34,966 bases of DNA from Candidatus Caldarchaeales archaeon. GTDB lineage: Archaea; Thermoproteota; Nitrososphaeria_A; Caldarchaeales; Wolframiiraptoraceae. A program made the position numbers and the translations under genes. The DNA lies in assembly GCA_039630055.1 (NCBI GenBank), contig JBCNVN010000014.1, positions 1-34,966 on the forward strand, read 5' to 3'. Each line of letters starts with the position of its first letter. Positions within the stretch are counted from its first letter, which is position 1. The notes under the pieces were generated by a model that saw only the letters and a list, made by a program, of their open reading frames with translations, did no database searches and was not told the origin of the DNA. Shown here piece after piece: positions 44 to 18,798 of this stretch.

Positions 44-2290
44 GAATCTCATAAAGAGAATTGAAAGACGTGGTGGTTCGCCAATCTTTCGGGGTGGATA
101 TGAGGACATGAATCTCATAAAGAGAATTGAAAGATCACTGCATATGTAGACGCTGTACTGGATCCTCTCAACAATCCTCCCGAATCTCATAAAGAGAATT
201 GAAAGTATCCACCTACACCACCCTCCACAGGCTTAACCTCATAATCTTGAATCTCATAAAGAGAATTGAAAGTGAACGTTCACTTAGCATTTCAACAAAC
301 GTACTAAATACAAAAAGAATCTCATAAAGAGAATTGAAAGATATTGATAGGGGGATTAGTGTAGGTAGCTGTGTAGGTTTCGAATCTCATAAAGAGAATT
401 GAAAGAGGAGAGATTGAGGGGTGAGGAGAAGAATGGGTAGGGTCGCGGAATCTCATAAAGAGAATTGAAAGTTTTTGGGAGAACCGTAAATCCATTCTCT
501 CCAGTGTTTTACAGCTTCAAGAATCTCATAAAGAGAATTGAAAGTCTCCTATAATGGTATGCCAACGTTGAGCCATCATCCTTGGCTACGAATCTCATAA
601 AGAGAATTGAAAGCTCCGCGAAGAGGCTTCTACGATATGAGGTGGTGCGTGAATCTCATAAAGAGAATTGAAAGAAATATTCTCCTACTGGGCGATCCCA
701 GTAACCCGGATAGTTTCCCGGAATCTCATAAAGAGAATTGAAAGTCTTCGACTTCTTTAAGAATATTTTCGACCTCTTTCTTGGGAATCTCATAAAGAGA
801 ATTGAAAGTCCCCCCTCTTCCTGTATTCCGCCATAATCTCGCTGAACCTGAATCTCATAAAGAGAATTGAAAGATTGAGAATGAATGACGGGTTTCGGCT
901 CGCTAACTTTTTTGATGAATCTCATAAAGAGAATTGAAAGTTAGATGCTTCAACCATGCATCGCATCAGCATGATGCTTGGAGAATCTCATAAAGAGAAT
1001 TGAAAGATCTAAACCCACATACTGTGCATATCTTTATTCCACCAGAATCTCATAAAGAGAATTGAAAGTTAAGAAGCTGAACCTGATAGTTGAATGGCTT
1101 AAAGTCCAGAATCTCATAAAGAGAATTGAAAGTTTGGAATCACTCCATTGGATATAATATTAGTGTAACGTTATGAATCTCATAAAGAGAATTGAAAGAC
1201 ATCATATGTTGTAGGCGTCGTGTATGTCTTGACATTGTACTTGGAATCTCATAAAGAGAATTGAAAGAGCATTTCTGATGGCTTCAAATCGTCGAAATTA
1301 GTCCCGATAATGAATCTCATAAAGAGAATTGAAAGTGTGAGTAAGAAGGTTGAGAGGAGGGAAGAGCAGAAGAGAATCTCATAAAGAGAATTGAAAGTTT
1401 CTGACGCCTTCGGGAAACACCCCTAAGAGGGAGTGCTGAATCTCATAAAGAGAATTGAAAGTTAGGATCATGTCCTTCCTCATTATGCCAGATGATTGAA
1501 TCTCATAAAGAGAATTGAAAGTCAACACTGTTTTGCCGTCGGGTGCAAAAACAACAACCTCGAATCTCATAAAGAGAATTGAAAGTCCAAATCTGTTAAC
1601 TTCTATGTGTTTTTCTCCAAACCACGAATCTCATAAAGAGAATTGAAAGATATATCTCGGTTGAATCATTTTCAAAGCAGTGTAAACACGAATCTCATAA
1701 AGAGAATTGAAAGCAAATTTCAACCTGTTTGGGTCATGAATGTTTGTAAGCTTCTTGAATCTCATAAAGAGAATTGAAAGTGATAGTCGACAGGACCGCC
1801 TACATTATGAGTGTGAACCTGAATCTCATAAAGAGAATTGAAAGATGTTTGGCTCGCTCCAAACCCTATCTGGAGGTATCCACCCGAATCTCATAAAGAG
1901 AATTGAAAGTTATCTTCTTTACATGTTTGTGTCAATTTTCATACAGAATCTCATAAAGAGAATTGAAAGCTGCGGACCATGAAAAAAACATTTTGTCTTT
2001 TTCCATCTTGAATCTCATAAAGAGAATTGAAAGTATTTACATAGCAACATTAAAAGGGTTCTTATGTGTTCAATGAATCTCATAAAGAGAATTGAAAGAT
2101 GAACGCTGCGTACTCTTTCTCGTTTATCACGTTGGCTACGGAATCTCATAAAGAGAATTGAAAGTCATGGCAATTATTTCAGCACTATATTCAAGTGTCT
2201 TGATAGGAATCTCATAAAGAGAATTGAAAGGTTTTTGAAGAAAATCATGCACCTCGTCGATTGTTTGAACCTCATAAAGGGATTTGAAAG
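44..2290 (+). CRISPR. CRISPR array, 35 repeats of 24 nt (GAATCTCATAAAGAGAATTGAAAG), 34 complete spacers of 36-49 nt; probably continues left of the window
   Basis: Identical repeats counted from 44-67 to 2207-2230. The last copy, 2267-2290 (GAACCTCATAAAGGGATTTGAAAG), has 3 mismatches and marks the trailer end. The 3' ATTGAAAG is the usual 8-nt crRNA 5' tag, so transcription is on the + strand with the leader outside the window. The repeat has a short TCTC-ATAAA-GAGA stem-loop. Confidence 0.99.
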
Positions 2291-2324
2291 AGGGGGATGT
2301 GTTTATGTAATTAAAAAATTTGCT

Positions 2325-2340
2325 GAAAAAGTTTATAATA
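2325..2340 (+). promoter_or_regulatory. Archaeal BRE/TATA promoter for the type III-D operon
   Basis: GAAAAAG-TTTATAATA lies about 25 nt upstream of ATG 2362, consistent with a leaderless transcript. Confidence 0.55.
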
Positions 2341-2361
2341 AACTTTCCACATGTTTCCTTT

Positions 2362-2748
2362 ATGTCTTTACAACTCTCTGAGATATTAAACTATGCTGTT
2401 AGGATAGGTGTACAAGCTAAGTTAGAGAATGTAACTAAGGCGCAGATAGAAAATCTTCTTAGCTCACTAGACTTCGTTAATGATCCAAAATTAAGCCTTC
2501 TAGTAACCTCTGCATACGCTCATAGACAAGCGGCTAGATTGGAGAGAGGACGTAATACTGCAAGATTAGTTAATGAATTAATGGATAAGATCTATAGAGG
2601 TGGAGAAGATAGAGAGAGGGCTAGATTTGCACTAGGTCTTGCAAAATGGATCTACGAAATAATGGAACAATACCGAATACCGAAGACAGATATCTCTACA
2701 TTAACTTTTGAGAAATTCCTCGAACTTCTAAGAGGAGAGCGTCAATGA
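2362..2748 (+). CDS. cas11: Type III-D small subunit (Cas11/Csm2-like)
   Basis: Small alpha-helical ORF that opens a RAMP operon; YAHRQAARL and LGLAKWIYE resemble small-subunit motifs. Start moved from TTG 2320 to ATG 2362 on promoter spacing. Gene order matches the Saccharolobus solfataricus SSO1424-1432 III-D operon. Confidence 0.7.
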   Translation: MSLQLSEILNYAVRIGVQAKLENVTKAQIENLLSSLDFVNDPKLSLLVTSAYAHRQAARLERGRNTARLVNELMDKIYRGGEDRERARFALGLAKWIYEIMEQYRIPKTDISTLTFEKFLELLRGERQ

Positions 2749-3443
2749 CAAACTTCAAAGATCTAGACATACTAAAAATCTTTACAAAGATTGAAGGAAT
2801 ACTGATAAATGAAACACCTCTAAGAATTGGAGTAGGTAGAGAGGGGCCGATAGGTAGCCCAATCGATCTATCAGTCTATCGAGTCAATGGGATACCATGT
2901 ATTCCAGGGTCAAGTCTAAAAGGAGTATTTAGATCATTTGTTGAATCAATAGCATCTTCAAAAGGATACAGAGTGCATCAACCCTGGGATAACCAAATAA
3001 TAGAAGATGAAGCAAAGAATAATAATTTCTGCATTATTTGCGGAATCTTTGGAAGCGGTGAATTAGCAAGCCATGTTAAGATCTATGATTCAACACCCCT
3101 AAAAAATTCAGATGGAAGAACATTTATGAAGACGGGAATAGGGATCGATAGAGAATTTGGAAGCGTAAGGCCTGGACACCTATTTACCGAAGAATTTGTA
3201 ATCCCGAAAACAAAATGGACTTTTAGAATGGATTTATACAATATATCATTGTTTCCTGAGCCAGAAGATGAGAGGGGAAAGCTTTTAAGAACGCTCTTAG
3301 ACACACTAACATCAATTGGTTTAAGCATCGGTGCGAGAAAAAGTGCTGGATGTGGTTTAATTAAACTCTTAGAAGCAAAATGGGAAACATACTCGATAAT
3401 CGATGGAACTTTTAAGCTTAAAGAAAGCGGTGTATTGAGATGA
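2745..3443 (+). CDS. csm3: Cas7-group RAMP (Csm3-like)
   Basis: ETPLRIG, IPGSSLKGVFRS, CIICGIFGS, GIGIDR and G-rich loop IGARKSAGCG; putative catalytic Asp in SPID. ATGA overlaps with neighbours. Confidence 0.9.
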   Translation: MTNFKDLDILKIFTKIEGILINETPLRIGVGREGPIGSPIDLSVYRVNGIPCIPGSSLKGVFRSFVESIASSKGYRVHQPWDNQIIEDEAKNNNFCIICGIFGSGELASHVKIYDSTPLKNSDGRTFMKTGIGIDREFGSVRPGHLFTEEFVIPKTKWTFRMDLYNISLFPEPEDERGKLLRTLLDTLTSIGLSIGARKSAGCGLIKLLEAKWETYSIIDGTFKLKESGVLR

Positions 3444-4381
3444 ACTTCTGGACATCTTCATCTATACTCTTAAGAGAAACAGTCTTCCAAGGATATATTG
3501 TAAATGTTGAGCCTCTACGTATTGGAAGCGGTAAAGAACCGCCATTAGGATCGTTAACAGACCTAGCAGTACTTAGAATAAAATACGGAGAAAAAGATAT
3601 TCCATACATTCCAGGCTCAAGTCTTAAAGGAGTATTTAGAAGTTCTGCAATAATGCTTGCTAGATCAATCGGTCTCAAAGCATGTAGTGGTCTATCAAAA
3701 GATGTATGTACAGAGGTTGAGAAAGTTGTTGAAGGAGCATCGGAGATGAAGTTAGGAGATGTAGTAGAACATTATATTAGAATCGGAGAGCCTGCAAACG
3801 CTATGAAAAAATTCTATGAGAAAGCATGTCTTATATGTAAAATATTTGGCTCACCTCATTATCTATCTAAAGTCTATTTTAGTGATGCATACCCGATCGG
3901 AGATAACGGCGAACTTCTTCCCTTCAGCTTAAACACTAGAACAGGGACAGCGATAGACAGAAAGACTGGAGCAGTATATGGTGGAGCACTTTATACGGTA
4001 GAATTCGTTGAGCCAAATACAAAATTCAAGTTTATGATATATGCTAGAAACTTACCAAACTATGCCCTCGGTCTATTAAGCAGTATTATCAATATGATAA
4101 ACCGTGGAGAAGTAAAGATCGGTGGATTTAAAACTAGAGGATTTGGAACAGTCCATATAGAAGAGCTCCTATTCAAATCCAGAGAGTATCCGAGAACTGA
4201 GGAGACTAAATTGGTCTCCCTCGATCTTGGAGAAGATAAAGAAATCGATCTTACTGGAATAGTCAAGTTGGAGAATAACTGGCTTATTGCAAGAGAAGAG
4301 AATGCTTGGAAGGTTTTAAAGATGTTGGAGGATTTATGGTATGAGTTCGGTAAAAGTTCAAGTGGTAAGAAATCCACCTAG
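3440..4381 (+). CDS. csm3: Cas7-group RAMP (Csm3/Csx7-like backbone subunit)
   Basis: EPLRIGSG, PYIPGSSLKG, CLICKIFGS, AIDRKTG, IGGFKTRGFG; Asp in SLTD. Confidence 0.92.
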   Translation: MNFWTSSSILLRETVFQGYIVNVEPLRIGSGKEPPLGSLTDLAVLRIKYGEKDIPYIPGSSLKGVFRSSAIMLARSIGLKACSGLSKDVCTEVEKVVEGASEMKLGDVVEHYIRIGEPANAMKKFYEKACLICKIFGSPHYLSKVYFSDAYPIGDNGELLPFSLNTRTGTAIDRKTGAVYGGALYTVEFVEPNTKFKFMIYARNLPNYALGLLSSIINMINRGEVKIGGFKTRGFGTVHIEELLFKSREYPRTEETKLVSLDLGEDKEIDLTGIVKLENNWLIAREENAWKVLKMLEDLWYEFGKSSSGKKST

Positions 4382-5306
4382 AGATAGAAGTATACTAGAA
4401 AATCTTTCAGGAAAGATCAGAACATCTATCATATCTCTCTCATACCTCCACATCGGAGCTGGAGATAGAATGCTTCTAGAAACAGAAGAAGGTAAGTTGA
4501 GAGAGATCGCAAAGAGAGCTGGAGATTTAAGAGAGGTAACTAGAGAGATAAGGTTTAAAGAATCTTCACCATTCTCTCTAACGACTAGAGGGCTCACTAT
4601 TCCTGGAAGCTCTATTAAAGGAAACATAAGATCTAGATTGGAATTGAGTTTTAGAAATGTAGATGGTAAAGTTGAAGCATGCTTCCAGAGATCAAGGATC
4701 CTGAAGGCTGAACCATCTATTGGAGAACAAGGTTGGAGACATTACAGGATATGGGGTGAGGTTTTAAGAGAAGATAGAGGCTCACCATGTGATTATACTG
4801 TTAATAAGTCTGTATGCCTTATCTGCGACCTATTTGGAACAGCTGGATTAAAAGGAGTCTTAGAATTCTCAGATTTCATACAAGATAATGTCTCTATAGA
4901 AGTCCTCAGACTACCTTATGGGATAGAGTTTGTAGCAGCAAGACAGAACTCTCGTTTTACAGGTTTCATAAACTTCTACAATCTCAAACCTGAAGAGGTT
5001 GGCCTAATATTAATGGGTATGGGCTTAAAAGATAGTAGGATCGGAAGACCCATACTGTTAGGAAGATTAAAGTATAGGAAGAAGATCGATGAAAGAGAAC
5101 TCGGTAAAGTAAGGTATGAAATAGAATCACTAGAGCTGTTTAGATATTCTAAGCCTCTGAAACTTGATGGTATCGAGATAAGCGGAGGTCAGAAGATATC
5201 TGGAGAAGAACTAGATAGAGTTATCAAGCTTCTTACAAGTCAATCTCTCAAAACCTATACTGGGTTAAAAATAGTCGACGAGGTTGAGAATCTTGAAAAA
5301 CTTTAA
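4341..5306 (+). CDS. Cas7-group RAMP (Csm5-like)
   Basis: YLHIGAG, IPGSSIKGNIRS, CLICDLFG; directly upstream of cas10. Confidence 0.85.
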   Translation: MSSVKVQVVRNPPRDRSILENLSGKIRTSIISLSYLHIGAGDRMLLETEEGKLREIAKRAGDLREVTREIRFKESSPFSLTTRGLTIPGSSIKGNIRSRLELSFRNVDGKVEACFQRSRILKAEPSIGEQGWRHYRIWGEVLREDRGSPCDYTVNKSVCLICDLFGTAGLKGVLEFSDFIQDNVSIEVLRLPYGIEFVAARQNSRFTGFINFYNLKPEEVGLILMGMGLKDSRIGRPILLGRLKYRKKIDERELGKVRYEIESLELFRYSKPLKLDGIEISGGQKISGEELDRVIKLLTSQSLKTYTGLKIVDEVENLEKL

Positions 5307-8034
5307 CGATCTAGAAGTAGAGCTTCCCAAATTCCCAGTATACAAATCATACATCTTACCATATAGGCATGGTGGAGACGAGATCGTAGATGTACTAGAG
5401 GTTGATAGTTACGCCATAGAAGATTGGAGAAAGATGTTATCCTATCTACATGAATTCTTGAGAGAAAGCTTGGCAATCGCTAGATTAAGTGACCAAGATG
5501 AGGTAGAGAAGATTGAACTGGTAAACGATCTCATAGTCCTCTTCTTAAGGATACCGTTGGTAAGAGAACTACTTCCAACAATAGCTCCCAGCCCTCTTAA
5601 ATCATATCTATTCTATAGACTTAATGAGCCTGTGACCACAGGGTCAGTAGAAGATATACTTGATTACGTCTATGCTTTCTACGATAAAATTACGAAAGAG
5701 AAGTTTTCCGAGACATCTGTTTCAAGATTTTTCGATGACCTTGAATTATGTGAACTTGTTGAGAGATGCTGGTTCAGGATCCCTGCAGATACGAGACCAG
5801 GGCCCAACACATGTGGACTTATCCCCCACATACTCTTATCATCTGCTATAGCATGGGCTTTAGCAATAGAGGAGGGCCTCTCAAGAGATAGAGTAGCAGT
5901 ATTAACCCTTGCAGCACTATTACACGATATTGGAAAACCCATAAGATACAGAGACCATGTTAGAGTTTCTGTAGAAGTAGCTAGAGAGCTACTTAAGAAT
6001 CTGCTTTCACAGGAGAAAGTTGATGAAGTAGTTAGATTAATAGAGCTTCACCACATAGGTGATGGCTCTGTTGAAGTTGAGATAATAAAGAGGGCTGACC
6101 ATATTGCTTCTAGAATCGATAGGCTTTCCAGCCTACTGGAAGATCTTCTAAAAAATGAGTTAAATAGAATTTCTAAAGAGACAAGTATAGATATTTATCG
6201 AGGTTATGAAGGTGGAGAGAGCTCTTGGGAGATATGGGAGGAACTGCATAGAGTTAAGCCTGATGCTATTAGAGAGCTCAGCACGTTATTTGTTCAAAGG
6301 ATTAGAGAATCGTTAAACAACTTTCAAGTAGTTCCGAAGATCGTTAAGACCGAAGATGTAAAAGGCGTTCTTATAGGCTTAGTAGACATAGGGGCTATTC
6401 AAGAATTTATCATGGCGACATCTGAGCTTAGAACTGTAGTAGCCTCAAGCCTCATAGTAGATATCCTTACGGCATTATTTATCCCAGTAGAGATCCAGAG
6501 ATCCAATCTTCTCAAAGGCAGAGTTCCTCTGGGGAATATTACGTATGCTGCTGGAGGAGTTGTAGAATTCATAATCCCTGAAAGATTTTATGATAATGTT
6601 CAAGAAGCTCTAGAAAACCTTCATAAGAAAACGTCTAAGATCGGTTTACCGATAAGAGTAGCTCACATAACCTTGAAAGATTACTATCCAGCAACGATTT
6701 TAGAACTCGTCAAAGATATGCAGATAGCTAAGCTCGAAGTGGATAGCTCTAAACAGCATATTACATTGAGTAGAAGTAAAGAGACTAGAGAACTATGCCA
6801 GGTATGCTATCTAAGAACTCCAGTAGAAGATATGCCAACTCCTGAAGGCAGTAAGAGAGTATGTAATATCTGTAAAAGATTATATGAAGTAGGTAGTGAG
6901 TTACATTTCAGATCAAAATACACATCAAAGATAACTATAAATAACAGTAATGTAGTTCCCCGAGAATTATTCGGAAAAGAGTGGGAAAGTATTGGCAAGT
7001 ACATCTTAGAGGTCATAGCAGGTCACGATGAGATAGAATTGGATAAACTTAAAAAACATATTATTGAATATAGGGATTTAGCAGTTATAAAACTTGATGG
7101 AAACCTTATGGGGCCGCTCATGGCTTCAAGCATATCTCTAGCAGACGCATGTGAGAGGAGTGCTAGAATAGATCTAGCTTTAAAGAAAGCTATGGATGAA
7201 GCTATTAAACAAGTTTTTGAAGCTGTTAGAGAAGTTGGTGGAGACCTTCAAGCTTTAAAGATTATCTCGCAGATAAAGCTCGGGTTAATGTATGCTGGAG
7301 GTGACGATGCACTAATCTTTATGCCTTCATGGACTTCGATAGGATTTACGCTAGTTGTTGGTGAAGAATTCTGCCTTAACATGGGAGGAGCGAGAGGATT
7401 ATCCATAGGATTAGCTGTAGGGAAATCCAAAGCAGATATATGGGGTCTGATAACTGCAGCCTCAAAATTAATGAAGATATCTAAAGGAGAAATGTCTGAA
7501 GAGGAGATCTGCAGGAGAGATCCATCAAGTAGCCGTATATGCTTTGATGTCTCAGATAGCCTAACTCTTACGGAGTCATCCGTTAAAACACATCTGGATC
7601 ATCTAAAGAGGGAGGGCTTGACGGCTCAACCCTTAAGGTTTGATGGAGGAGCGCCAAGTTTCAAACAGCTTATCTCTCTAGTAATCTCTGAAGATGTAAA
7701 GCCTAGAGAAGTCTTCAAGAACTGCTATCTCATATCTAGGCTCATAGAAAACGATCAGCAGAGTAGAGCAAAACATGTAAGGAGAGCTATTGCTGAATCG
7801 TTAAGCAGCGCTAGACGTATGGTCAAGAAGGTTAAAGGCTTAGAAGATTATCTAATCTCATTATCGACCACATATGCTTATAGACAGTCTCGAAGGGAAG
7901 AGTTAGATGAACTAACTAGAAGATGCTTCGAGACTATTACTAAGCTCGACTTATCTAGATACAATGGAAAGCAATATTCAATGTACTCAGATGCTGACCG
8001 TTTAATAAAGATCTCTGGAGGTGGAGCGATATGA
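5284..8034 (+). CDS. cas10: Cas10 large subunit with HD nuclease and cyclase Palm domains
   Basis: PADTRP, LLHDIGK (HD), ADHIAS, Zn finger CQVC...CNIC, KLDGNLMG and YAGGDD (intact GGDD). Confidence 0.96.
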   Translation: MRILKNFNDLEVELPKFPVYKSYILPYRHGGDEIVDVLEVDSYAIEDWRKMLSYLHEFLRESLAIARLSDQDEVEKIELVNDLIVLFLRIPLVRELLPTIAPSPLKSYLFYRLNEPVTTGSVEDILDYVYAFYDKITKEKFSETSVSRFFDDLELCELVERCWFRIPADTRPGPNTCGLIPHILLSSAIAWALAIEEGLSRDRVAVLTLAALLHDIGKPIRYRDHVRVSVEVARELLKNLLSQEKVDEVVRLIELHHIGDGSVEVEIIKRADHIASRIDRLSSLLEDLLKNELNRISKETSIDIYRGYEGGESSWEIWEELHRVKPDAIRELSTLFVQRIRESLNNFQVVPKIVKTEDVKGVLIGLVDIGAIQEFIMATSELRTVVASSLIVDILTALFIPVEIQRSNLLKGRVPLGNITYAAGGVVEFIIPERFYDNVQEALENLHKKTSKIGLPIRVAHITLKDYYPATILELVKDMQIAKLEVDSSKQHITLSRSKETRELCQVCYLRTPVEDMPTPEGSKRVCNICKRLYEVGSELHFRSKYTSKITINNSNVVPRELFGKEWESIGKYILEVIAGHDEIELDKLKKHIIEYRDLAVIKLDGNLMGPLMASSISLADACERSARIDLALKKAMDEAIKQVFEAVREVGGDLQALKIISQIKLGLMYAGGDDALIFMPSWTSIGFTLVVGEEFCLNMGGARGLSIGLAVGKSKADIWGLITAASKLMKISKGEMSEEEICRRDPSSSRICFDVSDSLTLTESSVKTHLDHLKREGLTAQPLRFDGGAPSFKQLISLVISEDVKPREVFKNCYLISRLIENDQQSRAKHVRRAIAESLSSARRMVKKVKGLEDYLISLSTTYAYRQSRREELDELTRRCFETITKLDLSRYNGKQYSMYSDADRLIKISGGGAI

Positions 8035-8711
8035 GATTCTACGTTAGAGCTAGACCTGTAGGAATAGCTTTAGTCGGTTGGAGTTATCCCTCAATGTTTG
8101 ATATCGATGTACCTTTCATGAGGAAGATCGTGAAAATGCTTAAGCCATCTAGTGATAGAGATTACGATATGAAGGTTTACATACCTGGTTCAAGCTTTAA
8201 GGGTTCTTTAAGATCTTCGGTGAGCAGGATAGCCAGCTCTTATGGTTTCACTTCATGTGGATATATCGAGCCTGAACTTATTAGAATAGCTCATCAGAGA
8301 AGTGGTATATGCGATGTCTGTAAGATCTTTGGTTATCCTGGAAGCAATACTTCTAGCCTTATCCATGTCAGCGACCTAGACCCTGTAAACAGCATTAGAA
8401 CATTCAACGTTACTAGAACCAAGCTTGAAGATGGGTCTCTTAAAGTCTTCGAGCACGCTCTCTATACATATGAGCATATCGATGACCAAGCAGAGTTTAG
8501 AGGATATATTGAAGTTGAGTCTAAAAATCCAGATATACTGGGTCTCGTTCTTCTAGGTTTAGCAGAGCTTAGACTTGGTAGAATGGGTAGAAGCTCTATC
8601 TTCGACCTAAGAATTGAAGAATCCAGAGAGCTTAGAGACCTTCTATCTAAGACTAAATGGATCTATCTACTAGAAGATCTGGAGAGGTGGCTCTGGATTG
8701 GAGTTACTTAA
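8031..8711 (+). CDS. Cas7-group RAMP
   Basis: YIPGSSFKGSLRS, CDVCKIFG, LGRMGRSS loop. Confidence 0.88.
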   Translation: MRFYVRARPVGIALVGWSYPSMFDIDVPFMRKIVKMLKPSSDRDYDMKVYIPGSSFKGSLRSSVSRIASSYGFTSCGYIEPELIRIAHQRSGICDVCKIFGYPGSNTSSLIHVSDLDPVNSIRTFNVTRTKLEDGSLKVFEHALYTYEHIDDQAEFRGYIEVESKNPDILGLVLLGLAELRLGRMGRSSIFDLRIEESRELRDLLSKTKWIYLLEDLERWLWIGVT

Positions 8712-9816
8712 GATTGTATTCGAGACGAGGTCTCCTACCATAGTAACTAGTAAGATGTCTAAAAGAGGATACTGTACACCGTTGGATTATATTCCACCAT
8801 CAACTCTCAGAGGCGCATTAATATCTTCACTCTACAGAAGTGAGATCGTTGATAAAGACTATCTAAGTAGGGAGGCTGAATCACCTAACATCGTTACTTC
8901 ACCAGCATTCCCACTAGACCGAGGGAGAGAATCGTATCCAGCCCACCCATTCATCTATGAATGTAAGATACCTCATGAAAAGAACGGTCAGAGGTTTAGA
9001 GAGAGATATAATGATGGTAGAGAGATCTTACAGACTATTAAAGAGGGATTGGATATAAAAATCAGACAGTTATGTAGTGTGGGTCATCCATCATTGGAGA
9101 ACCTTCACCCGAGACTTCTCATTCCACTTAAAGAATCGTTTGAAGAAGTTAAGTTGCTTACTATGCACTTTGTAAATACAGGTGTAAACAAGCATAGAGG
9201 TACATCTCATAAAGGTATGCTATTCGAGTATGAAGCAATAGTTGAAGGCGTAGAGTTCTGGTCGAACATATCTACTCCAGAAGAGTTTGTCGAAGTTTTC
9301 AAGCCTGGTTTTGAATTCTCTATTGGAAGAGGTGTATCAAGAGGGTTTGGAAAAGCCGTGATAAAGGATGTTAAGAAGATAAACTTAGACGAGGAAGCTG
9401 AAGATTTTAAAAAGATATTAGAAAATAATAGAAGGATCGTCTTCTACTCTCTCTCAAATCTACTCTCAGTACGAGCGGACAATACTGCTTCGACATATCC
9501 GAGTGAGATAGAACTTAGACGTATAGGTGAAAGATTTAACGTCAACGTCGGTGGAAGGATCATTATAGAAAAAGTATATGGTAAGATGTCCGCCTTCCAC
9601 TCTGGATGGGATATTAGGAGTAATATGGAGAGACCGATTATACGGTCAGCATCCCGTGGAAGTATAGCGATTGGAAGAGTTTCTGGGACAGGTGAATTGT
9701 CTAAGATTTTAGCTATTCTAAGTCATATAGGGACGATTGAGTATGGTCTAGACTTCAATATAACGGGGGTAAACATTCTCGTACCTTTAGAGATACATCC
9801 AATGGCAGGGTGGTAG
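8698..9816 (+). CDS. csx10: Cas5-group RAMP, Csx10-like (type III-D signature)
   Basis: DYIPPSTLRGAL, GMLFEYEAI, IGRGVSRGFG; length and position match the III-D Cas5-group subunit. Confidence 0.78.
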   Translation: MELLKIVFETRSPTIVTSKMSKRGYCTPLDYIPPSTLRGALISSLYRSEIVDKDYLSREAESPNIVTSPAFPLDRGRESYPAHPFIYECKIPHEKNGQRFRERYNDGREILQTIKEGLDIKIRQLCSVGHPSLENLHPRLLIPLKESFEEVKLLTMHFVNTGVNKHRGTSHKGMLFEYEAIVEGVEFWSNISTPEEFVEVFKPGFEFSIGRGVSRGFGKAVIKDVKKINLDEEAEDFKKILENNRRIVFYSLSNLLSVRADNTASTYPSEIELRRIGERFNVNVGGRIIIEKVYGKMSAFHSGWDIRSNMERPIIRSASRGSIAIGRVSGTGELSKILAILSHIGTIEYGLDFNITGVNILVPLEIHPMAGW

Positions 9817-9817
9817 G

Positions 9818-10720
9818 ATGGAGCTACATCTAAACCCGATGATGTTTAAAGTTATCGGCATACTATCGTTCAAGCTGGTCTCACCGCTAAATATCGGTCT
9901 AGGCGAGAGAGAAGTTAGAAGAGACTTCTTAAGAATTCCTGATGGAAGATTACTAATACCTGCATCTACATGGAAGGGATCATTCAGGCATCTAACAGAG
10001 CTAATTGCAAAGAATACGAAATTCAATGGCATAACCGAATTAGCCGTAAGACTCTACAAAGAAACAAAAGCAGGAATCATCTACAGTGAAGATAAGGAAA
10101 GGTTTAAAGAATTTGCTTATGGATTCCAGAAGAGTCTTTGGGATGTCAAGGTGAGAGATGTCTTGCTAGATATCGGCTACTCTAATGAGGATATTGAAGA
10201 AGCTCAGAAAGATACAGACACTGGACGCCAAAAACTGCTCGAGATAGCTGAAGACTACATAGCTATCCATTGCCCAATCGGTAAACTTTATGGAAACAAA
10301 GTATTAGCTGGAAAAATCCGATTTCTAGACAATCTGACTAAACTGGGTAGCAATGAAGTGGAGCTTCATATCAGACCTGGAACCGGGATAGATAGACAGA
10401 CTGGTAAGGTAAGAGAAGGAGTATTATACTTTATCAATACGATCTCACCTGGACCAGAAATAAGGTTAAGATTGATAATAGACAACTTGATGCCTAGAGA
10501 AGATGATTCAAGATTGTTTGCAAGCACTCTTGAAGCATTGAAGTTTACAGGTTTATCGATAGGTGCTAGGAAGAGTGCTGGAATGGGTCATCTGAATCTA
10601 GATAAGGCAACCTTCTACCTTATCGATCTGAGAAAAGATGAGAACCTCGCTATAGGCAACCCCTTCAAGAAAGCAGAAAAGATAGATCTTGAAGGGTTCA
10701 TAAAATGGCTCCGAGAGTAG
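9818..10720 (+). CDS. Cas7-group RAMP
   Basis: SPLNIG, IPASTWKGSFR, GIDRQTG, IGARKSAGMG. Confidence 0.88.
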   Translation: MELHLNPMMFKVIGILSFKLVSPLNIGLGEREVRRDFLRIPDGRLLIPASTWKGSFRHLTELIAKNTKFNGITELAVRLYKETKAGIIYSEDKERFKEFAYGFQKSLWDVKVRDVLLDIGYSNEDIEEAQKDTDTGRQKLLEIAEDYIAIHCPIGKLYGNKVLAGKIRFLDNLTKLGSNEVELHIRPGTGIDRQTGKVREGVLYFINTISPGPEIRLRLIIDNLMPREDDSRLFASTLEALKFTGLSIGARKSAGMGHLNLDKATFYLIDLRKDENLAIGNPFKKAEKIDLEGFIKWLRE

Positions 10721-12003
10721 ACTGGACTGAAGAATCGGAGAAGAAGGTCGGTGAAATACTGGGAAGGTTCAAACTTTATAAACTCGATAAACCTGATAAA
10801 CTTTATGGACTTAAATATTGGGAGGATTTAAGAAAATATAATACTTTTACTTTTTCAGAAGCGGAAAGTGATACAATTTTAGGATCTTTAGTTGATATAT
10901 TGAACTTGGAGATTAGAAACTTTATCATTAGTAAGTTTAGTAAATTTAAAGATGACATAGTAATTTTTCCTGACAAGTGCACAGATATTATTAATTATGA
11001 ACTTGCTGGTCTAGATGGGTTACTCCGAGAATTATACTTTGAAAAAGGTGGTCAAGACACCTTTCGTACAAGTTACAATGATAAGTTAAAGAACTTAAGA
11101 AAACGTTTTAAAGAAGAAGTTACCCGCATATACAAGGAGTATTACGACTCATACTCGAATCTGGTTAAAGGGATTACATCTCTTTCCTCAGAAATACGTG
11201 GATATCTATCTATAGCTCTATCGCTTACGTCATTAAAGGGATTCTGGAATAAAGAATTTAGAAGGGTGTGGATGAGGTTTAATAAGATCAATATAGGTGA
11301 TGATAGTATTCAGTCTAAGTTCTGTGAATTTACTTCAAGAGATATAGATTTCTTTAAAGGAGATTATTCATTTTTTGAGCTTCTTGAGCTTCATAAAGAG
11401 TTTCAAGTTGATGAGTTGGACTTAAAAAAGATCTACTATAATTATTACAAAGGTGAAAGAAAAGGAGAACTAGAGAATCTTGTAAATAAACTATGTAGTA
11501 GGACTAATCTCAAGAATAAGGGGAAGCAGGTTTACCATCTTCTAAAAAATTTCTTTGATAGTTTACAGCCAAATTTATTACATCATGAATTGAGTGAAGA
11601 TGAGTTTAAAGACATTTACGATCAGTTTTTAGTTGAAAATGTTATCATGGAGTATGAGCTTTTTAGAGTTCTTGTTAATAATGGATACCCATGTATACCT
11701 AAGGTTTGCATATTCAAGAAAGATGAGAAAGGAGATGTAAAAATTGGTGAAGTGGATGTTATGGTCCTGGATGATGATATTTTACATTTAGTTGAGATAA
11801 CTTTGAGAAGAGACCCCTCTGAGAAAGAAGAGAAATTATCTAGAATTAAAGAACTTCTTGATAATGAACCGGAAGGGATAAGTGATTTCAAACCTTGTGT
11901 CATAAGTAATAGAGATAAATTTGAAGAATTCATAAGAACATTGAGATGTGAAGAGCTAGCTCAAACCCATCACCATGTTAAGGAAAATATAAACTTAACA
12001 TGA
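10705..12003 (+). CDS. Uncharacterised CRISPR-associated protein with a C-terminal PD-(D/E)xK-like nuclease domain
   Basis: 432-aa ORF overlapping the last RAMP gene by 16 nt. C-terminal EYELF...GEVDVMV...LVEIT pattern; N-terminal ~300 aa look helical and are unrecognised. Confidence 0.6.
   Translation: MAPRVDWTEESEKKVGEILGRFKLYKLDKPDKLYGLKYWEDLRKYNTFTFSEAESDTILGSLVDILNLEIRNFIISKFSKFKDDIVIFPDKCTDIINYELAGLDGLLRELYFEKGGQDTFRTSYNDKLKNLRKRFKEEVTRIYKEYYDSYSNLVKGITSLSSEIRGYLSIALSLTSLKGFWNKEFRRVWMRFNKINIGDDSIQSKFCEFTSRDIDFFKGDYSFFELLELHKEFQVDELDLKKIYYNYYKGERKGELENLVNKLCSRTNLKNKGKQVYHLLKNFFDSLQPNLLHHELSEDEFKDIYDQFLVENVIMEYELFRVLVNNGYPCIPKVCIFKKDEKGDVKIGEVDVMVLDDDILHLVEITLRRDPSEKEEKLSRIKELLDNEPEGISDFKPCVISNRDKFEEFIRTLRCEELAQTHHHVKENINLT
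11974..12002 (+). terminator. Perfect 9-bp inverted repeat at the operon end (terminator hairpin or operator)
   Basis: CATGTTAAG-N11-CTTAACATG followed by ATTTT, overlapping the stop codon of the 432-aa ORF. Confidence 0.35.
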
Positions 12004-12587: not shown

Positions 12588-14024
12588 TTACTGAAAGGTC
12601 AATCCTTTTGATGATGAGTCAAGTATACGTTTTTGTGCTTCCCGTTCTTCACTATATTTTACCAGCAAATGCTCTCTTAGATTGTACTTATCTTTACCCT
12701 CTGTGCTGAGCTTCATATATGTTACATTACGTTCAAAGCCTGAATGGGCTAGAAAATTTCTATCATCAAACCTATTCATATCAGGTTTCTTCCTTTCAAA
12801 GATTTCACTTAAGCTTATCCAAGAAGCTAGTTGATCTCTACAAGCTTCATCCTTCTCGATCATGTTTTTGACTTTTTCTTCAATCTCATGAAGAGAATTA
12901 CTGATCATTATGTCTAACCTCCTATTCTTGAAAAAGAACTTCCTTCTAACATCATGGAGATCTCTTAGACTTACTATTTTCTTATTATCTAATCCGAAAA
13001 CTTTAGCTGTAAAATAGCATTTTATAAGCGTGGCAAAATCATTCTCGAAGCTAACCTTCCTCACAACTCTAAACCCATTTTCTGTTCTGTAGATCTCTAT
13101 CCACTTTCTGTATATGTTCTCTAAACAGTTAAGATATTCTTCTAGCTTTTTATGGTCCGGAAAGAAAGAATAGAGGGTAAGTGGTAATCCATTGAGAACA
13201 GCTCCCAGGAAAGCATTTAGCTCTTTAATACTTAGGTCTTTTAGACATGAGTCTACTTCATTATCCAATTTCCTACTATCTAATTCGCTCAATTTCTCAG
13301 AGGCAAGTTTAGGATTGGTAGCAATTTCTGATATCTTAAGGAATTTCGCATTATCGTTTAAAGCTTCACTACATGGAGATGGAGCTACAGATGTATTCTC
13401 CACAGAGTGAATACGTAGAGATGTGGTAACTTCTCCAACGAATGGCTCAGCATTATATACTTTGAGTGTTACTATATCACTCCCTATTGCAAGTATGCCT
13501 AGCAATTCCTTGATAGCTCTATAGACTAGAACAGGCATGTAATTTATACCATGTGAAAGATCTAGGTGTAAGCTGAGTTCGCCAGGGTTAAGTTCTTTAG
13601 ACAACTTGAGGAGTACGTATATGTAAAAGTCGAGAAGATCACCGAGGAACTCACCAATCTGAAGACCTTCTGTTCTACTTGTGCGAAATCTTCCAGTACC
13701 AGGTGCAACTATAATCTCAATATTTCTAGTATCGAGTCCAAGGTCTTTTCTCACGAAATCCAGAAACTTTCCCTTGACATAACCTAAGAGTTCTTCGTAA
13801 GTGGATACATATCTATCGGCAACCGTATCTAGGACTATTATCAGAATCTTTGAAAGCTCTTTCTCCTCTTTCTTTATTCTACATAGAAGTGAAGAAAGAG
13901 AGCACTTGCTCATAACTCTCTCATCGTTAAGAATATATTCAACTTCTCTCCATCCTGGAATCCAGGGGTTGCCCCAAGTAGCTACCAGAATACTGTCCAT
14001 AACGGCCTTTCTGATACTATCCAT
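12588..14024 (-). CDS. csx1: Csx1 CARF-HEPN cOA-activated ribonuclease
   Basis: N-terminal VATWGNP..W, LDLSHGINYMP (DxTHG-type CARF) and C-terminal HEPN RNFLAHSG (R-x4-H). Start may be the second MDSI at 14000. Confidence 0.92.
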   Translation of the reverse strand: MDSIRKAVMDSILVATWGNPWIPGWREVEYILNDERVMSKCSLSSLLCRIKKEEKELSKILIIVLDTVADRYVSTYEELLGYVKGKFLDFVRKDLGLDTRNIEIIVAPGTGRFRTSRTEGLQIGEFLGDLLDFYIYVLLKLSKELNPGELSLHLDLSHGINYMPVLVYRAIKELLGILAIGSDIVTLKVYNAEPFVGEVTTSLRIHSVENTSVAPSPCSEALNDNAKFLKISEIATNPKLASEKLSELDSRKLDNEVDSCLKDLSIKELNAFLGAVLNGLPLTLYSFFPDHKKLEEYLNCLENIYRKWIEIYRTENGFRVVRKVSFENDFATLIKCYFTAKVFGLDNKKIVSLRDLHDVRRKFFFKNRRLDIMISNSLHEIEEKVKNMIEKDEACRDQLASWISLSEIFERKKPDMNRFDDRNFLAHSGFERNVTYMKLSTEGKDKYNLREHLLVKYSEEREAQKRILDSSSKGLTFQ

Positions 14025-14123: not shown

Positions 14124-14933
14124 ATGGATGGTTGGGCTCATCTGGTTTTGGTCGGAGCATATATCGTAAATAATGCTTATAGAAGTAACTTGATAGAGCG
14201 TGATGTTCCTAATTTAGAGGAGAACCTTAAAGAAGAAAGGTTTAGAGATAGCTTTATTGAATTACTTCTAAACTATGTTGAGAGTAATTATAAGGAGGCT
14301 AGTGCTGAGCTGAATACTTGCATAGACTTGATTGTTGAAGGATATGAGAATGGTAAGCAGCAGTGATGTTATCTACTATCTTCTGATATAAAAGTCGGTA
14401 AACTGTGTAGCGATATCTTGTTTAGATTCTTGAAGAAGTTTTCTAGTGAGAGGCTTGATGGTAGGCTTGCTGTACTCGATCCAGTATCCATTCCTCTCTT
14501 AGGAGATCCTAAAAAATTTAATGATGGTTTAGCTAACCTATTTGAGAAGATCGTCGATATGCTATCATACCATAAGAGGCTTGGTGATAATGTCTTTGTT
14601 CATGTAACTAGAGAATTTAAACCAGAGACAGCTATAGCTATTCTAGCAGCCAACATGTCTATGACCGATGCTTCAACATTCTACATACATGAACACTTAA
14701 ACCAGCTCGAAAGGATACCTGCTATGCCTATAGCTTTCAGGAAGTGGAGAAGATTCTCAGAGATGATGAGTCATCTTCTAAACGTTGATAGAGCAAACAA
14801 GGAACAGTACATCAGATTTTATGGAAGAAGAGCTGTATTAGAAGGAATTAGACTTGGATGGATAGAAGAAGAGAGTACATTCTTAAAACTTGCCACATTT
14901 GGTAGATTGTTGTGGAGTAAGCTGAGAAGATAG
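14124..14933 (+). pseudogene. Disrupted APE2256-family CARF protein (Crn1/Sso1393-like ring nuclease)
   Basis: ORFs 14124-14366 and 14418-14933 are one frame split by TGA at 14364-14366. Read through, it shows VG..IVNN, SAELN, LLSSD...G..C, F.DGL.NL, FKPE, YIHE and IP.MP motifs plus a wHTH-like tail. Confidence 0.75.
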
Positions 14934-16540: not shown

Positions 16541-17284
16541 TTGGTGAGGATTCTTATTGAGGTGTCGAGGTTGACGAAGAGCTTTGACGGTGAGACTGCT
16601 GTCCGTGGTCTAAACTTAACTGTAAGTCAAGGAGAGATCCATGGTCTCCTAGGTTTAAATGGGGCAGGGAAGACGACGACAGTCAAATGTATCGTAGGGC
16701 TCTTAAAACCTGATCAAGGAGAGATTATGATTGATGGACGATCAGCTTTCCATGACAACTCTTACAAAGACTTTCTTGGATACCTTCCCGAGAACCCTTC
16801 GCTACCCGAATACTTGACTACAGAAGAATTCCTCATCTTCATCTCGAGGCTTAAAGGTCTTAAGGGTTTGGAGTTGGAAAGACGTTTCTCAGAGGTTGTA
16901 GAGCTTTTCAGCCTCCAAAGATACTTAGACAAGCTTATATTCGAGTTATCAAAAGGGATTAGGCAGAGGATAGCATTCGCAGCGGCAGTTGTGAATACTC
17001 CTCGTATATTGATCCTTGATGAACCATTCAATGGTTTGGACCCGGAGGCTCAGAGCATCGCGAAGCTTCTTATGAAGGAGACCGCTGAGAGAGGTGGAGC
17101 CGTACTTGTAAGTACTCATCTCCTCGACTCTATCGAACGTATCTGCGACTCGGTGACGATTATCCACAATGGAAGAGATCTGGCCACTGGAACGCTGGAT
17201 GAGATTAGAAGTTTAGCAGGTCTTTCAAAATCTGCTCCACTCGAAGAAGCTTTCCTACGCATAGTCTCGAGGCATAAAAGTTGA
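16541..17284 (+). CDS. ABC transporter ATP-binding protein (ABC-2/exporter type)
   Basis: Walker A GLNGAGKT, signature LSKGIRQR, Walker B ILILDEP, STH switch. Confidence 0.93.
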   Translation: MVRILIEVSRLTKSFDGETAVRGLNLTVSQGEIHGLLGLNGAGKTTTVKCIVGLLKPDQGEIMIDGRSAFHDNSYKDFLGYLPENPSLPEYLTTEEFLIFISRLKGLKGLELERRFSEVVELFSLQRYLDKLIFELSKGIRQRIAFAAAVVNTPRILILDEPFNGLDPEAQSIAKLLMKETAERGGAVLVSTHLLDSIERICDSVTIIHNGRDLATGTLDEIRSLAGLSKSAPLEEAFLRIVSRHKS

Positions 17285-18798
17285 CCTGGACAGTGATCCT
17301 ACTCTTAAAGGTTAAGCTTAAACAGTATCTAGGACAGGTGAGACGCTCCATCAGAAACTTACTCTCACTGATTCTCGTCTACCTTCTCTGGCTTACGGTA
17401 ATCGGTTTAATCTCATTTGTACTTCGAGCTACTGGAGTCTCATCCAGCTCACAAGATTTTCTTAAGATCTTATCAGATGTAACGGTTATAGCTATCTTAG
17501 CGGTAGGCATCTTCCTCGGGATCAAGGGTGGAATAACAGCGCTTCCCTACGAGCTAGACTATGTCCTATCCTCGAATATAGGTCCACGAATCTTCTTGCT
17601 TACAGACTTACTCTTTCAACTCTGCCTCCTAACCTTCTTCATAATCCCACCTACATCCGTCATGCTAACGATATTGACTTATCCAAACCATTTCACTTAT
17701 CTCGGGAGAGCTATTCCTCTCTATATTGTGGCAATCATAATGTCTATAATGCTTTCCCATATTCTGGGAGTATCTAGAAGCATTATAGGTGAGAGTAGAG
17801 TGAAGATGATAGGCTGGCCCCTCTTACTCATGATAACATCGCCTCTTATTCTTCTAGCTTTAAAGACCCCTCTACCCCCTCTATTAACATACCATCCAGC
17901 ACTGGTTCTCACATCTGCAATAGATAGAGTTGGTGAGAACTTTTACTGGATGATGCCCTATCTCTTTATTCTCGGGTTAGCATATCTACGTCTTTCAAAG
18001 ACCAACTTCTACTCTTCTGTCTCACCTCTACTCCTCTCCATATTGATGGAGCCACCCACCAAGCTTTCAAAATACATTAAAACTCCGATAAAGATTGAGA
18101 AGCTTTTAGGTCTCAAGGTAGCTAAAGGCTACTCTTCTCTCATGTATATGCTCCATTTGTTGAGAGTCTTGAGAGAAGGAAGTCTCTGGACAGGGGTCAT
18201 AGTGCTGCTTTTCTTGATATTAGTGAATACGGCCATTCCAAGATTGGTAAATGTTGCCCAGTTCCCAGAAGTGGCTGAGCTGACTATGATAGCTCTATAC
18301 ATCCCCTTACTCCCAGCTCTCCTCTCGATAAACTGGAGTATCTCGGAAAGACCTAATACATGGATCGTCAATCTCTCTACTAAAGGTGAGAGATATTATC
18401 TATCCGGCCTCTTCTTCTCGTATCTCACAGTCACCTTCCCATTCTCTTTAAGCCTTTATGGAATCGTCTCCATTGGCTCCACTGACCTACCATTCATATT
18501 AGTTGATATAGTCTTGCTTCTCGCGATGTCATGTTTCGGGACAGCTCTCTCAATCCTTATCTCGCTAGTAGCGAAACTCGCACTCTCACCCCTCTCCCTC
18601 AGTTCCCTACTATATATCTTGACACCTTTAACAGGTTCATTGATCCTCTCGCTACCCATATTGACCATTAGATTGCATGAACCGCTTGCCAGTTCTCCGA
18701 CAATAGGTCTTACTAGCATGATGATAGGATACATCGTCATCACTACTTTCATCCTCTATAGGATACTGGTTAAGGAAGGTGTAAGATATCTCAATTAG
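17281..18798 (+). CDS. Polytopic membrane protein, probable ABC exporter permease
   Basis: 505 aa with roughly a dozen hydrophobic segments; overlaps the ATPase stop codon. Confidence 0.8.
   Translation: MTWTVILLLKVKLKQYLGQVRRSIRNLLSLILVYLLWLTVIGLISFVLRATGVSSSSQDFLKILSDVTVIAILAVGIFLGIKGGITALPYELDYVLSSNIGPRIFLLTDLLFQLCLLTFFIIPPTSVMLTILTYPNHFTYLGRAIPLYIVAIIMSIMLSHILGVSRSIIGESRVKMIGWPLLLMITSPLILLALKTPLPPLLTYHPALVLTSAIDRVGENFYWMMPYLFILGLAYLRLSKTNFYSSVSPLLLSILMEPPTKLSKYIKTPIKIEKLLGLKVAKGYSSLMYMLHLLRVLREGSLWTGVIVLLFLILVNTAIPRLVNVAQFPEVAELTMIALYIPLLPALLSINWSISERPNTWIVNLSTKGERYYLSGLFFSYLTVTFPFSLSLYGIVSIGSTDLPFILVDIVLLLAMSCFGTALSILISLVAKLALSPLSLSSLLYILTPLTGSLILSLPILTIRLHEPLASSPTIGLTSMMIGYIVITTFILYRILVKEGVRYLN

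Follow-up and report, generated by a model that had tools for sequence, protein, structure and literature searches.

A predicted Can2-like nuclease domain without a CARF sensor is encoded beside archaeal SsoCsm-type III-D CRISPR operons

A 34,966-nt stretch of DNA from a Candidatus Caldarchaeales archaeon (contig JBCNVN010000014.1 of assembly GCA_039630055.1; hereafter the window) makes up an entire contig of an archaeal assembly (1.54 Mb in 80 contigs) and encodes a type III-D CRISPR operon followed by a gene without a name. This gene, the target of the present analysis, belongs to a small, unnamed archaeal family whose members lie beside the same eight-gene operon at every locus with usable flanks. 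Its predicted structure joins an all-helical N-terminal domain to a C-terminal domain that resembles the nuclease domain of Can2 and Card1. The best explanation in our view, which we hold tentatively and rate as somewhat short of probable, is that the target is a III-D-dedicated accessory effector nuclease, Can2-like and CARF-less, found in one archaeal SsoCsm-type clade and with docking to the effector complex as its favoured mode of action.

Linkage to the III-D operon was assessed by searching 401 genomes, a sample of the phylum, with a family profile; of the 27 matches, 20 were accepted. Matches rejected as non-members were N-terminal coiled-coil matches inside open reading frames (ORFs) of 221-1160 aa (G387, G004, G094 and G251) and 47-residue matches (G136, G146 and G358), two of which, on checking, proved to be inside ATPase_2 + DUF4143/DUF234 proteins. 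ORFs were called greedily in the 20 regions and 233 of the 270 were scanned with Pfam, the 37 omitted being far from the match. A further locus (L057) came from a later local hidden Markov model (HMM) search. The target gene lies beside the same operon (cas11, cas7, cas7, cas7, cas10, cas7, cas5, cas7) in the window and in all 17 loci with usable flanks (L030-L045 and L057). Both in the window and in 13 of the 17 loci it comes ninth among the genes on the operon strand, and in 8 of 14 same-strand cases (window included) 8-22 nt of its start overlap the end of cas7. The gene is divergent from cas11 in four loci (L034, L035, L041 and the degenerate L039). Context could not be judged for three more copies, of which one is on a contig of 1969 bp, one is a fragment at the edge of a contig and one, on a 4.5-kb contig, is broken. 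The 401-genome and viral-contig searches turned up no member apart from such an operon.

A Cas10 profile made from the target loci matches 56 of the 401 genomes. All 21 family-bearing genomes (the 20 accepted plus G057) carry this related Cas10, and the target is present in 21 of the 56 genomes that have it. In one family of 15 genomes, most of them closed chromosomes of 2-3 Mb, 13 have the Cas10, with lower scores, and none has the target. The linkage is thus consistent and specific, and the target is a type III CRISPR-associated accessory gene; an initial reading of the locus from its letters alone (the sequence-only reading) had named co-occurrence of homologues with cas10 as a point to check, and such co-occurrence is what we find. 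That reading had also cited the synthesis of cyclic oligoadenylate by Cas10 with intact GGDD, a motif that the neighbouring Cas10 has together with an HD motif (Table 1). Among the 15 linked Cas10s that were compared, GGDD is kept in all and HD in 14; the Cas10 of L030 (7072-9723) has RD for HD and lacks the second HH motif while keeping GGDD and the target gene. Decayed copies of the target occur in two genomes (L039, 10152-10731; L049, 1662-2113), as fragments in different frames, with stops and with the N-terminal part gone, still beside cas genes.

The target reads as a 432-aa ORF whose ATG lies inside the preceding csx7/cas7 ORF, which it overlaps by 16 nt. This overlap had been pointed out by the sequence-only reading, along with a higher AT content than that of the neighbours and an E...D...ExK-type pattern with Thr at the Lys position. 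All were recovered: GC is 0.319 in the target gene and 0.389 across the operon, and the quoted string is present as MEYELFRVLVNNGYPCIPK...GEVDVMVLDDDILHLVEITLRR, giving E316, E318, K333, E349, D351, E364 and T366. The database gene call for the same ORF (P0002, window 11272-12003) is only 243 aa long and starts at M190. Because homologues have the N-terminus MAPR.NW... in common, comparison of the sequences supports the 432-aa reading as the correct one and the 243-aa call as a truncation. A weak 29-nt match to a spacer-repeat junction also lies within the gene, at 11372-11400.

Sequence searches show the family to be small, archaeal and unnamed. A word-indexed search returned three relatives and the 243-aa call among 7095 candidates, and an exhaustive profile search of 1.84 billion proteins found 41 representatives at E ≤1e-3 (19 at 1e-10 and 11 at 1e-30). 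Pfam was run on 29 of the 41; the others were nine short fragments, the 243-aa call and two sequences that had been aligned before. None of those scanned passed a curated cut-off except P0022, a repetitive protein of 1605 aa with 26 matched stretches and incoherent Pfam hits, which was discarded as an artefact. The source names that we saw for homologues are all 'hypothetical protein', and the metagenome-assembled genomes that encode them are labelled Nitrososphaeria, Nezhaarchaeales, Thaumarchaeota or Methanomethylicaceae. The window's protein (P0001) has no significant match in Pfam or NCBIfam even at permissive E-values, the best Pfam match (PNPase, E 0.042) being due to chance, and in PADLOC it matches only NsnC at chance level (E 0.037).

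A profile (A1) compared with PDB sequences had no match at E ≤10. The A3 and A6 profiles had apolipoprotein-like proteins and designed helical bundles as their top nominally significant matches, owing to coiled-coil composition, and reached Can2, VC1899 and Hjc only at E 0.03-0.7. The best score in the ESM Atlas was 0.88, with every cluster unnamed and therefore of no help, and a viral structure library yielded only generic PD-(D/E)xK matches at E 0.01 or weaker. A pattern-based locus search, for which A1 served as query as A3 was too divergent, found no relative among 108 candidates from genome contigs or 229 from viral contigs, and one among 325 candidates from metagenome contigs. This close relative (L055) is followed by ORFs that match the window's Csx3 and Csx1 genes in size and strand.

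The predicted structure divides the protein into two parts. AlphaFold gave the target a predicted local distance difference test score (pLDDT) of 62.6 with four sequences, and a pLDDT of 90.4 and a predicted template modelling score (pTM) of 0.88 with a 43-sequence alignment (A3). In the AlphaFold2 model, residues 1-181 are exclusively helical and the chain remains helical to residue 312 save for a short strand at 188-192. The N-terminal domain is dominated by a long antiparallel hairpin of helices 79-111 and 117-176. Its structural matches are generic helical bundles only, with Z up to 9.5, which is below noise for helical folds, and no column before residue 168 is 60% conserved among the 43 members. 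We considered and rejected an origin from Cas11, since hhalign of A3 against the operon Cas11 (A4) gave a probability of 0.2% and E 0.3. Neither a CARF nor a SAVED domain was found in the target by Pfam, NCBIfam or PADLOC at permissive E-values or in the predicted fold, and the sequence-only reading likewise saw no such motif in the N-terminal ~300 residues.

The remainder of the model resembles a complete Can2/Card1 nuclease domain. Residues 172-312 correspond to the helical part of that domain, and residues 313-414 form an alpha-beta-beta-beta-alpha-beta-alpha PD-(D/E)xK core (helix 313-325; strands 330-340, 343-356 and 359-365; helix 372-386; strand 394-400). Foldseek ranks Can2 (8q3y), VC1899 (1xmx) and Card1 (6wxw) at the top for both models, with E ~2-6e-3, which is not under the tool's 1e-3 line, and probabilities of 0.72-1.00. 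VIA-align places the Can2 family on model residues ~171-420 (Z 7.0-8.5, 167-210 aligned residues). Six of the alignments (Z 7.1-8.5, 167-197 aligned residues, rmsd 3.7-5.8) are to Cdn1 9u49 (Z 8.5, 185 aligned, chain 149-399 on model 175-417), Can2 8q44 (Z 8.3, 191 aligned), VC1899 1xmx (Z 7.7, 188 aligned), Card1 6xl1 (Z 7.6, 186 aligned, chain 145-373), SthCan2 7bdv (Z 7.5, 167 aligned) and 8bao (Z 7.1, 184 aligned). An independent wide search with the first model retrieved Can2 at Z 9.3 over 192 residues. We favour a Can2-like fold because the same family recurs, because the alignments cover the whole 250-residue domain and because this is the sole non-coiled-coil family near the top. According to the part of PMC12825302 that deals with it, Cdn1 is a Can2-family CARF and PD-(D/E)xK enzyme whose nuclease domain follows a linker at 151-157, in agreement with the aligned chain ranges. 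The C-terminal part thus has, as modelled, a PD-(D/E)xK fold like the whole Can2/Card1 nuclease domain. This accords with the nuclease type first read from the letters and redraws the domain boundary: the N-terminal ~300 residues had been left unassigned, which holds for residues 1-171 and fails for residues 172-312.

The core fold carries acidic residues on alpha-1, beta-2 and beta-3, as in PD-(D/E)xK enzymes. E316, E349, D351 and E364 would form the metal site, with Thr in the textbook place of Lys (Table 1). The residue at this position is Thr in 40 of 43 members, Ser in two and Lys in one, the L034 member (E-V-K). Basic residues are present nearby in sequence at K/R333 (32/43) and R368 (31/43). 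Local alignment to SthCan2 brings GEVDV...LHLVEITLR onto NELDV...LHVIECKTR with ExD and Ex(K/T)xR in the same register; at family level (GEvD...lvEvTtR against NELDV...VIECKTR) this alignment has E 0.07, which is not significant. Sub-threshold Pfam matches of members are all of PD-(D/E)xK type: NERD (3/43), Card1_endonuc (3/43), Hjc (2/43) and, in one member each, PDDEXK_10, Cas4 and CoiA_C. Retention of the acidic residues in 40-43 of 43 members at a mean pairwise identity of 18.6% is hard to explain without metal binding.

A comparison with characterized systems identified both parallels and differences. Like the Can2/Card1/Cdn1/VC1899 proteins (DUF1887; CARF plus PD-(D/E)xK, activated by cyclic tetraadenylate, cA4), the target has the whole nuclease-domain fold, with a helical part and an alpha-beta-beta-beta-alpha-beta core, as well as an ExD...Ex[K/T]xR motif of equal spacing, a size of ~430 aa and a setting in type III loci. 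Unlike them, it lacks CARF and has a helical hairpin in residues 1-171, has Thr for Lys in most members and is confined to one archaeal III-D clade. PF09002 (Card1-like endonuclease) does not match P0001 at E ≤10 and matches three of the 43 members only sub-threshold (best E 0.0032, under the 26.4-bit cut-off). No canonical Card1_endonuc protein scored above cut-off in the 401 sampled genomes. The target thus shares the fold of the Can2 family and departs from it in CARF and Lys, and we do not assign it to that family. Can1 of T. thermophilus (6sce), a cA4-linked type III DNA nuclease, has a related nuclease domain (Z 8.4, 157 aa) but is monomeric, with a nuclease-like domain in addition to two CARF domains, an N-terminal architecture that is absent from the target. 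Csx1/Csm6 effectors can occupy the same slot after the last backbone gene (the Csx1 gene of L058 starts within the cas7 stop) but differ in their HEPN RNase fold, CARF sensor and occurrence across subtypes.

The target gene has diverged faster than the genes that it accompanies. Mean pairwise identity across 15 loci is 18.6% for the target, 34.8% for Cas10, 37.3% for the last Cas7 and 33.9% for Cas5, which corresponds to evolution about twice as fast as that of core genes. Target and Cas10 pairwise identities correlate nonetheless (Spearman 0.53; the pairs are non-independent and the p-value is overstated), and the nearest neighbour is the same as that of Cas10 in 8 of 15 loci for the target, 11 for Cas7 and 9 for Cas5. 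For the sole close pair (L043/L045), synonymous divergence (dS) is 0.087 in the target and 0.071 and 0.065 in core genes, while the ratio of nonsynonymous to synonymous divergence (dN/dS) is 0.77 in the target and 0.32 and 0.16 in core genes. The gene therefore appears, from these sequence comparisons, to travel with its operon under weak or diversifying constraint.

Low GC is a recurrent property of the target gene. Its GC lies below that of the operon in 14 of 14 loci compared, by 5-23 points, as in L040 (0.29 against 0.48-0.55 for operon genes) and L034 (0.39 against 0.59-0.67). It is the lowest-GC ORF in five of six loci tabulated gene by gene, including L031. Housekeeping genes that flank it in L044 likewise have a low GC (0.36-0.43). 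GC at third codon positions (GC3) stays at 0.16-0.44 in the target while that of Cas10 spans 0.15-0.76, so amino-acid content alone does not explain the low GC. Co-divergence and equal dS led us to reject recent horizontal gene transfer as the cause. The earlier description of the gene as 'horizontally added', in the sense of a recent event, is not supported, given a conserved slot, identities that track Cas10 and a dS that matches core genes. AT-richness is shared across the family, in hosts of any GC, and does not mark one transfer. It may reflect selection that keeps a dangerous enzyme poorly expressed, drift towards AT where selection is weak, or repeated replacement from an AT-rich pool.

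These observations suggest a mechanism in which the CARF sensor of Can2 has been replaced. The C-terminal ~250 residues would act as a Can2/Card1-type PD-(D/E)xK nuclease domain, and a ~170-residue helical-hairpin domain in place of CARF would dimerise the protein, dock it on the III-D effector complex, or both. In this way the nuclease would be recruited to the place where the complex has target RNA bound, or be activated there, and would act beside the Cas10 HD domain and Csx1, which is driven by cyclic oligoadenylate (cOA), rather than through a diffusible cOA signal. The catalytic activity, substrate and docking route are predictions. We favour docking over a diffusible signal because only one Cas10 clade carries the family, whereas cOA effectors are common to several subtypes (Table 2 of Shah 2018, PMC6546367, as far as the entries consulted go). 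Docking is also favoured because the N-terminal domain lacks conserved columns, as expected for a co-evolving interface and not for the pocket of an invariant ligand, because translation of the gene is often coupled to that of the last cas7, because the gene co-diverges with Cas10, and because no CARF gene was seen in the ±10 kb examined around the modules of L040 and L044, which lie among housekeeping genes. When the last Cas7 (A5) was modelled together with the target (A3), the predicted complex scored 0.00, which says nothing for or against docking. A more ambitious form of the proposal is a type III effector nuclease that dispenses with a CARF or SAVED sensor, its Can2-type domain wired to the III-D complex by a fast-evolving helical docking domain, in which target RNA would license a second tethered nuclease next to the Cas10 HD domain and the AT-rich, ill-adapted codon usage seen in every host would serve as a brake on expression of a dangerous enzyme; we regard this extended version as possible but doubtful.

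Several findings weigh against a dedicated, docked nuclease. We fetched 17 Cas10 loci without a target match, seven of which were cut by contig ends ahead of the slot, and the ten with readable operon ends have no target gene. Their slot holds Csx1 (L058, 11470-12972, overlapping the cas7 stop), Cas6 (the Sulfolobaceae-like operons L070, 3840-4634, and L071, 10771-11586) or nothing, with housekeeping genes following the operon in L063 and L064, and with either no ORF on the operon strand or ORFs that are small or unnamed in L056, L059, L060, L068 and L072. A six-frame HMM search of the 17 loci for target remnants gave only the intact L057 copy. The sampled Sulfolobaceae-like operons lack the gene, and the purified native III-D complex of S. 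solfataricus (SsoCsm) has eight subunits and no ninth in the part of PMC9945777 that describes it. Because it is absent from many sister operons and from this eight-subunit complex, the target is better viewed as an accessory occupant of a swappable slot than as a core subunit, and it looks like an ancillary effector in that slot rather than a structural component. GGDD in all 15 Cas10s compared makes a cOA-dependent route possible. As 42 of 43 members lack the canonical Lys, the domain could be inactive. Z scores of 7-8.5 for the Can2-family alignments are moderate, and sequence searches reach Can2 only at E 0.03-0.07, which is not significant. Finally, the dN/dS of 0.77 (one pair) and the two pseudogenised copies are signs of weak constraint.

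One alternative makes the protein a freely acting ancillary effector. It would detect a Cas10 product (cA4 or another nucleotide) with a new kind of sensor, distinct from CARF, and would cut single-stranded RNA (ssRNA) or single-stranded DNA, or nick double-stranded DNA, in the manner of Can2. The sensor would be the helical domain or the conserved junction at residues 167-227. NucC and Csx23 provide precedents, as both sense cyclic nucleotides without CARF or SAVED. The idea further draws on the intact GGDD of the 15 linked Cas10s, on the Can2-like nuclease domain, on the Csx1 that holds the equivalent slot in the sister operon L058, and on L040 and L044, where no other candidate receptor was seen in the same flanks. 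We nevertheless judge it unlikely: cA4 is an invariant ligand and residues 1-167 have no conserved columns, the helical hairpin is not a known nucleotide-binding fold, and restriction to one Cas10 clade is unlike the distribution of known cOA effectors in the consulted part of Shah 2018 (PMC6546367). The replacement of Lys by Thr or Ser raises a different alternative, in which the PD-(D/E)xK fold is catalytically dead and the protein is a nucleic-acid-binding or scaffolding factor, for example a III-D regulator or assembly factor. Fast evolution and the decayed copies fit such a role. The acidic residues are harder to reconcile with it, being retained at so low a mean identity, as are the conserved basic residues K/R333 and R368. 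Active PD-(D/E)xK enzymes that have Q or E in place of the Lys are known (BglII and BamHI), and we consider a dead enzyme distinctly improbable.

Two further proposals seem to us less probable still. One is that the target matures CRISPR RNA (crRNA) or trims RNA, for instance at the crRNA 3' end, rather than acting in interference. The ninth slot does hold an RNA-processing enzyme, Cas6, in the Sulfolobaceae-like L070 and L071, and Can2-family enzymes are able to cut ssRNA (PMC12825302, in the portion consulted). The window and several other loci have a separate Cas6, though, operons without the target are common and nothing links the fold to crRNA, and we think this function very improbable. 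The other, to which we give the least credence, sees in the target a nuclease gene of selfish or toxin-like character, carried along by III-D operons but with no part in immunity. Low GC and GC3 in every host, fast evolution and occasional decay would suit a selfish gene, but the fixed position and co-divergence with the operon argue otherwise, as do its absence outside these operons and from viral contigs in our searches and the lack of an antitoxin-like partner gene.

To our knowledge, the type III ancillary nucleases with this fold (Can1, Can2, Card1 and Cdn1) are all activated by cyclic oligoadenylate on CARF. Retention of the nuclease in a single Cas10 clade, with the sensor exchanged for a helical hairpin, suggests that RNA recognition and collateral cleavage are coupled in a different way. 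The SsoCsm type is, as far as we know, the most subunit-rich CRISPR effector, and the target adds a ninth, lineage-specific gene to its operon. Physical coupling of an effector enzyme to a type III complex is a concept shared with other systems, although the folds differ and coupling is only proposed here: the Csx29 protease is tethered on Cas7-11 in III-E. Fusions of NucC and Cas10 are also on record (PMC11229360, in the part consulted). The literature surveyed contains no description of a CARF-less Can2-like protein, a III-D-linked archaeal PD-(D/E)xK protein or an operon of this type with a ninth gene; this survey does not extend to the sequences of the 'unknown' clusters in Shah 2018. Two of those clusters, C3a76 and C3a223, are archaeal and III-D-linked in Table 2 of that paper (PMC6546367), and one might be the target family. 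The family also offers test cases for the dispensability of the ExK lysine in Can2-like nucleases, for the refilling of type III effector slots (by the target family, Csx1, Cas6 or nothing) and for a gene whose GC can lie 10-23 points under that of co-transcribed neighbours across hosts.

Coordinates of the target gene, its predicted parts and the surrounding CRISPR locus are collected in Table 1. In order and in family, the eight genes upstream of the target correspond to genes 1424-1432 of the S. solfataricus SsoCsm operon, which encodes the III-D complex of PDB 8BMW (PMC9945777, in the section describing the operon). In the sampled Sulfolobaceae-like operons the last cas7 is followed by Cas6 (L070 and L071) or by no same-strand gene (L072), not by the target.

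Table 1. Positions of the target gene, its predicted domains and residues, and neighbouring CRISPR features in the window
Feature	Position	Strand	Evidence or remarks
Target gene (P0001), unnamed archaeal family	10705..12003	+	ORF and translation, ATG start, 432 aa; full-length homologues; AlphaFold2 model
N-terminal all-helical domain, residues 1-171 (predicted)	10705..11217	+	AlphaFold2 secondary structure
Can2/Card1-like nuclease domain, residues 172-418 (predicted)	11218..11958	+	VIA-align and Foldseek (top matches Can2, VC1899 and Card1, probability 0.92-1.00) on AlphaFold2 model
E316, helix alpha-1, LEYE motif (predicted site)	11650..11652	+	E in 40/43 members
E349-V-D351, strand beta-2, 'PD' position (predicted site)	11749..11757	+	E 43/43, D 42/43
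E364-I-T366, strand beta-3, (D/E)xK with Thr for Lys (predicted site)	11794..11802	+	E 40/43 (+3 D); T 40/43
CRISPR array	44..2290	+	34 identical 24-nt repeats and 1 degenerate terminal repeat
SsoCsm-type III-D operon	2320..10720	+	Pfam, NCBIfam, PADLOC
cas11/csm2	2320-2748	+	
cas7/csx7	2745-3443	+	
cas7/csx7	3440-4381	+	
RAMP	4341-5306	+	
cas10, HD and palm with GGDD	5284-8034	+	LHDIGKP, YAGGDDAL
RAMP	8031-8711	+	
csx10/cas5	8698-9816	+	
csx7, third	9818-10720	+	
Csx3/Crn3-like ring nuclease gene, 99 aa	12255..12554	+	PF09620 E 5.5e-15; TIGR02579 53.9 bits, cut-off 55.4
Csx1 (CARF and HEPN), canonical cOA-activated effector	12588..14024	-	PF22230, PF09455; TIGR01897 243.6 bits

The contig begins within the CRISPR array, and the leader end is probably off the contig. 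The degenerate terminal repeat (2267-2290, three mismatches) adjoins cas11. Within csx1, 17 of 19 positions at 12881-12899 match the first 19 nt of the CRISPR repeat; by our own estimate, made without a tool, ~4e-4 such matches would be expected in random sequence. A Cas6 gene is also encoded downstream in the window. A gene of the APE2256 family (CARF/ring-nuclease-like) at 14124-14933 is interrupted by one in-frame TGA at 14364-14366, giving ORFs of 80 and 171 aa in the same frame, and could represent a pseudogene, an assembly error or read-through. Further along, a 505-aa ORF at 17281-18798 has no Pfam, NCBIfam or PADLOC match and overlaps the end of the gene for an ABC-transporter ATPase (16541-17284), of which it presumably encodes the permease partner.

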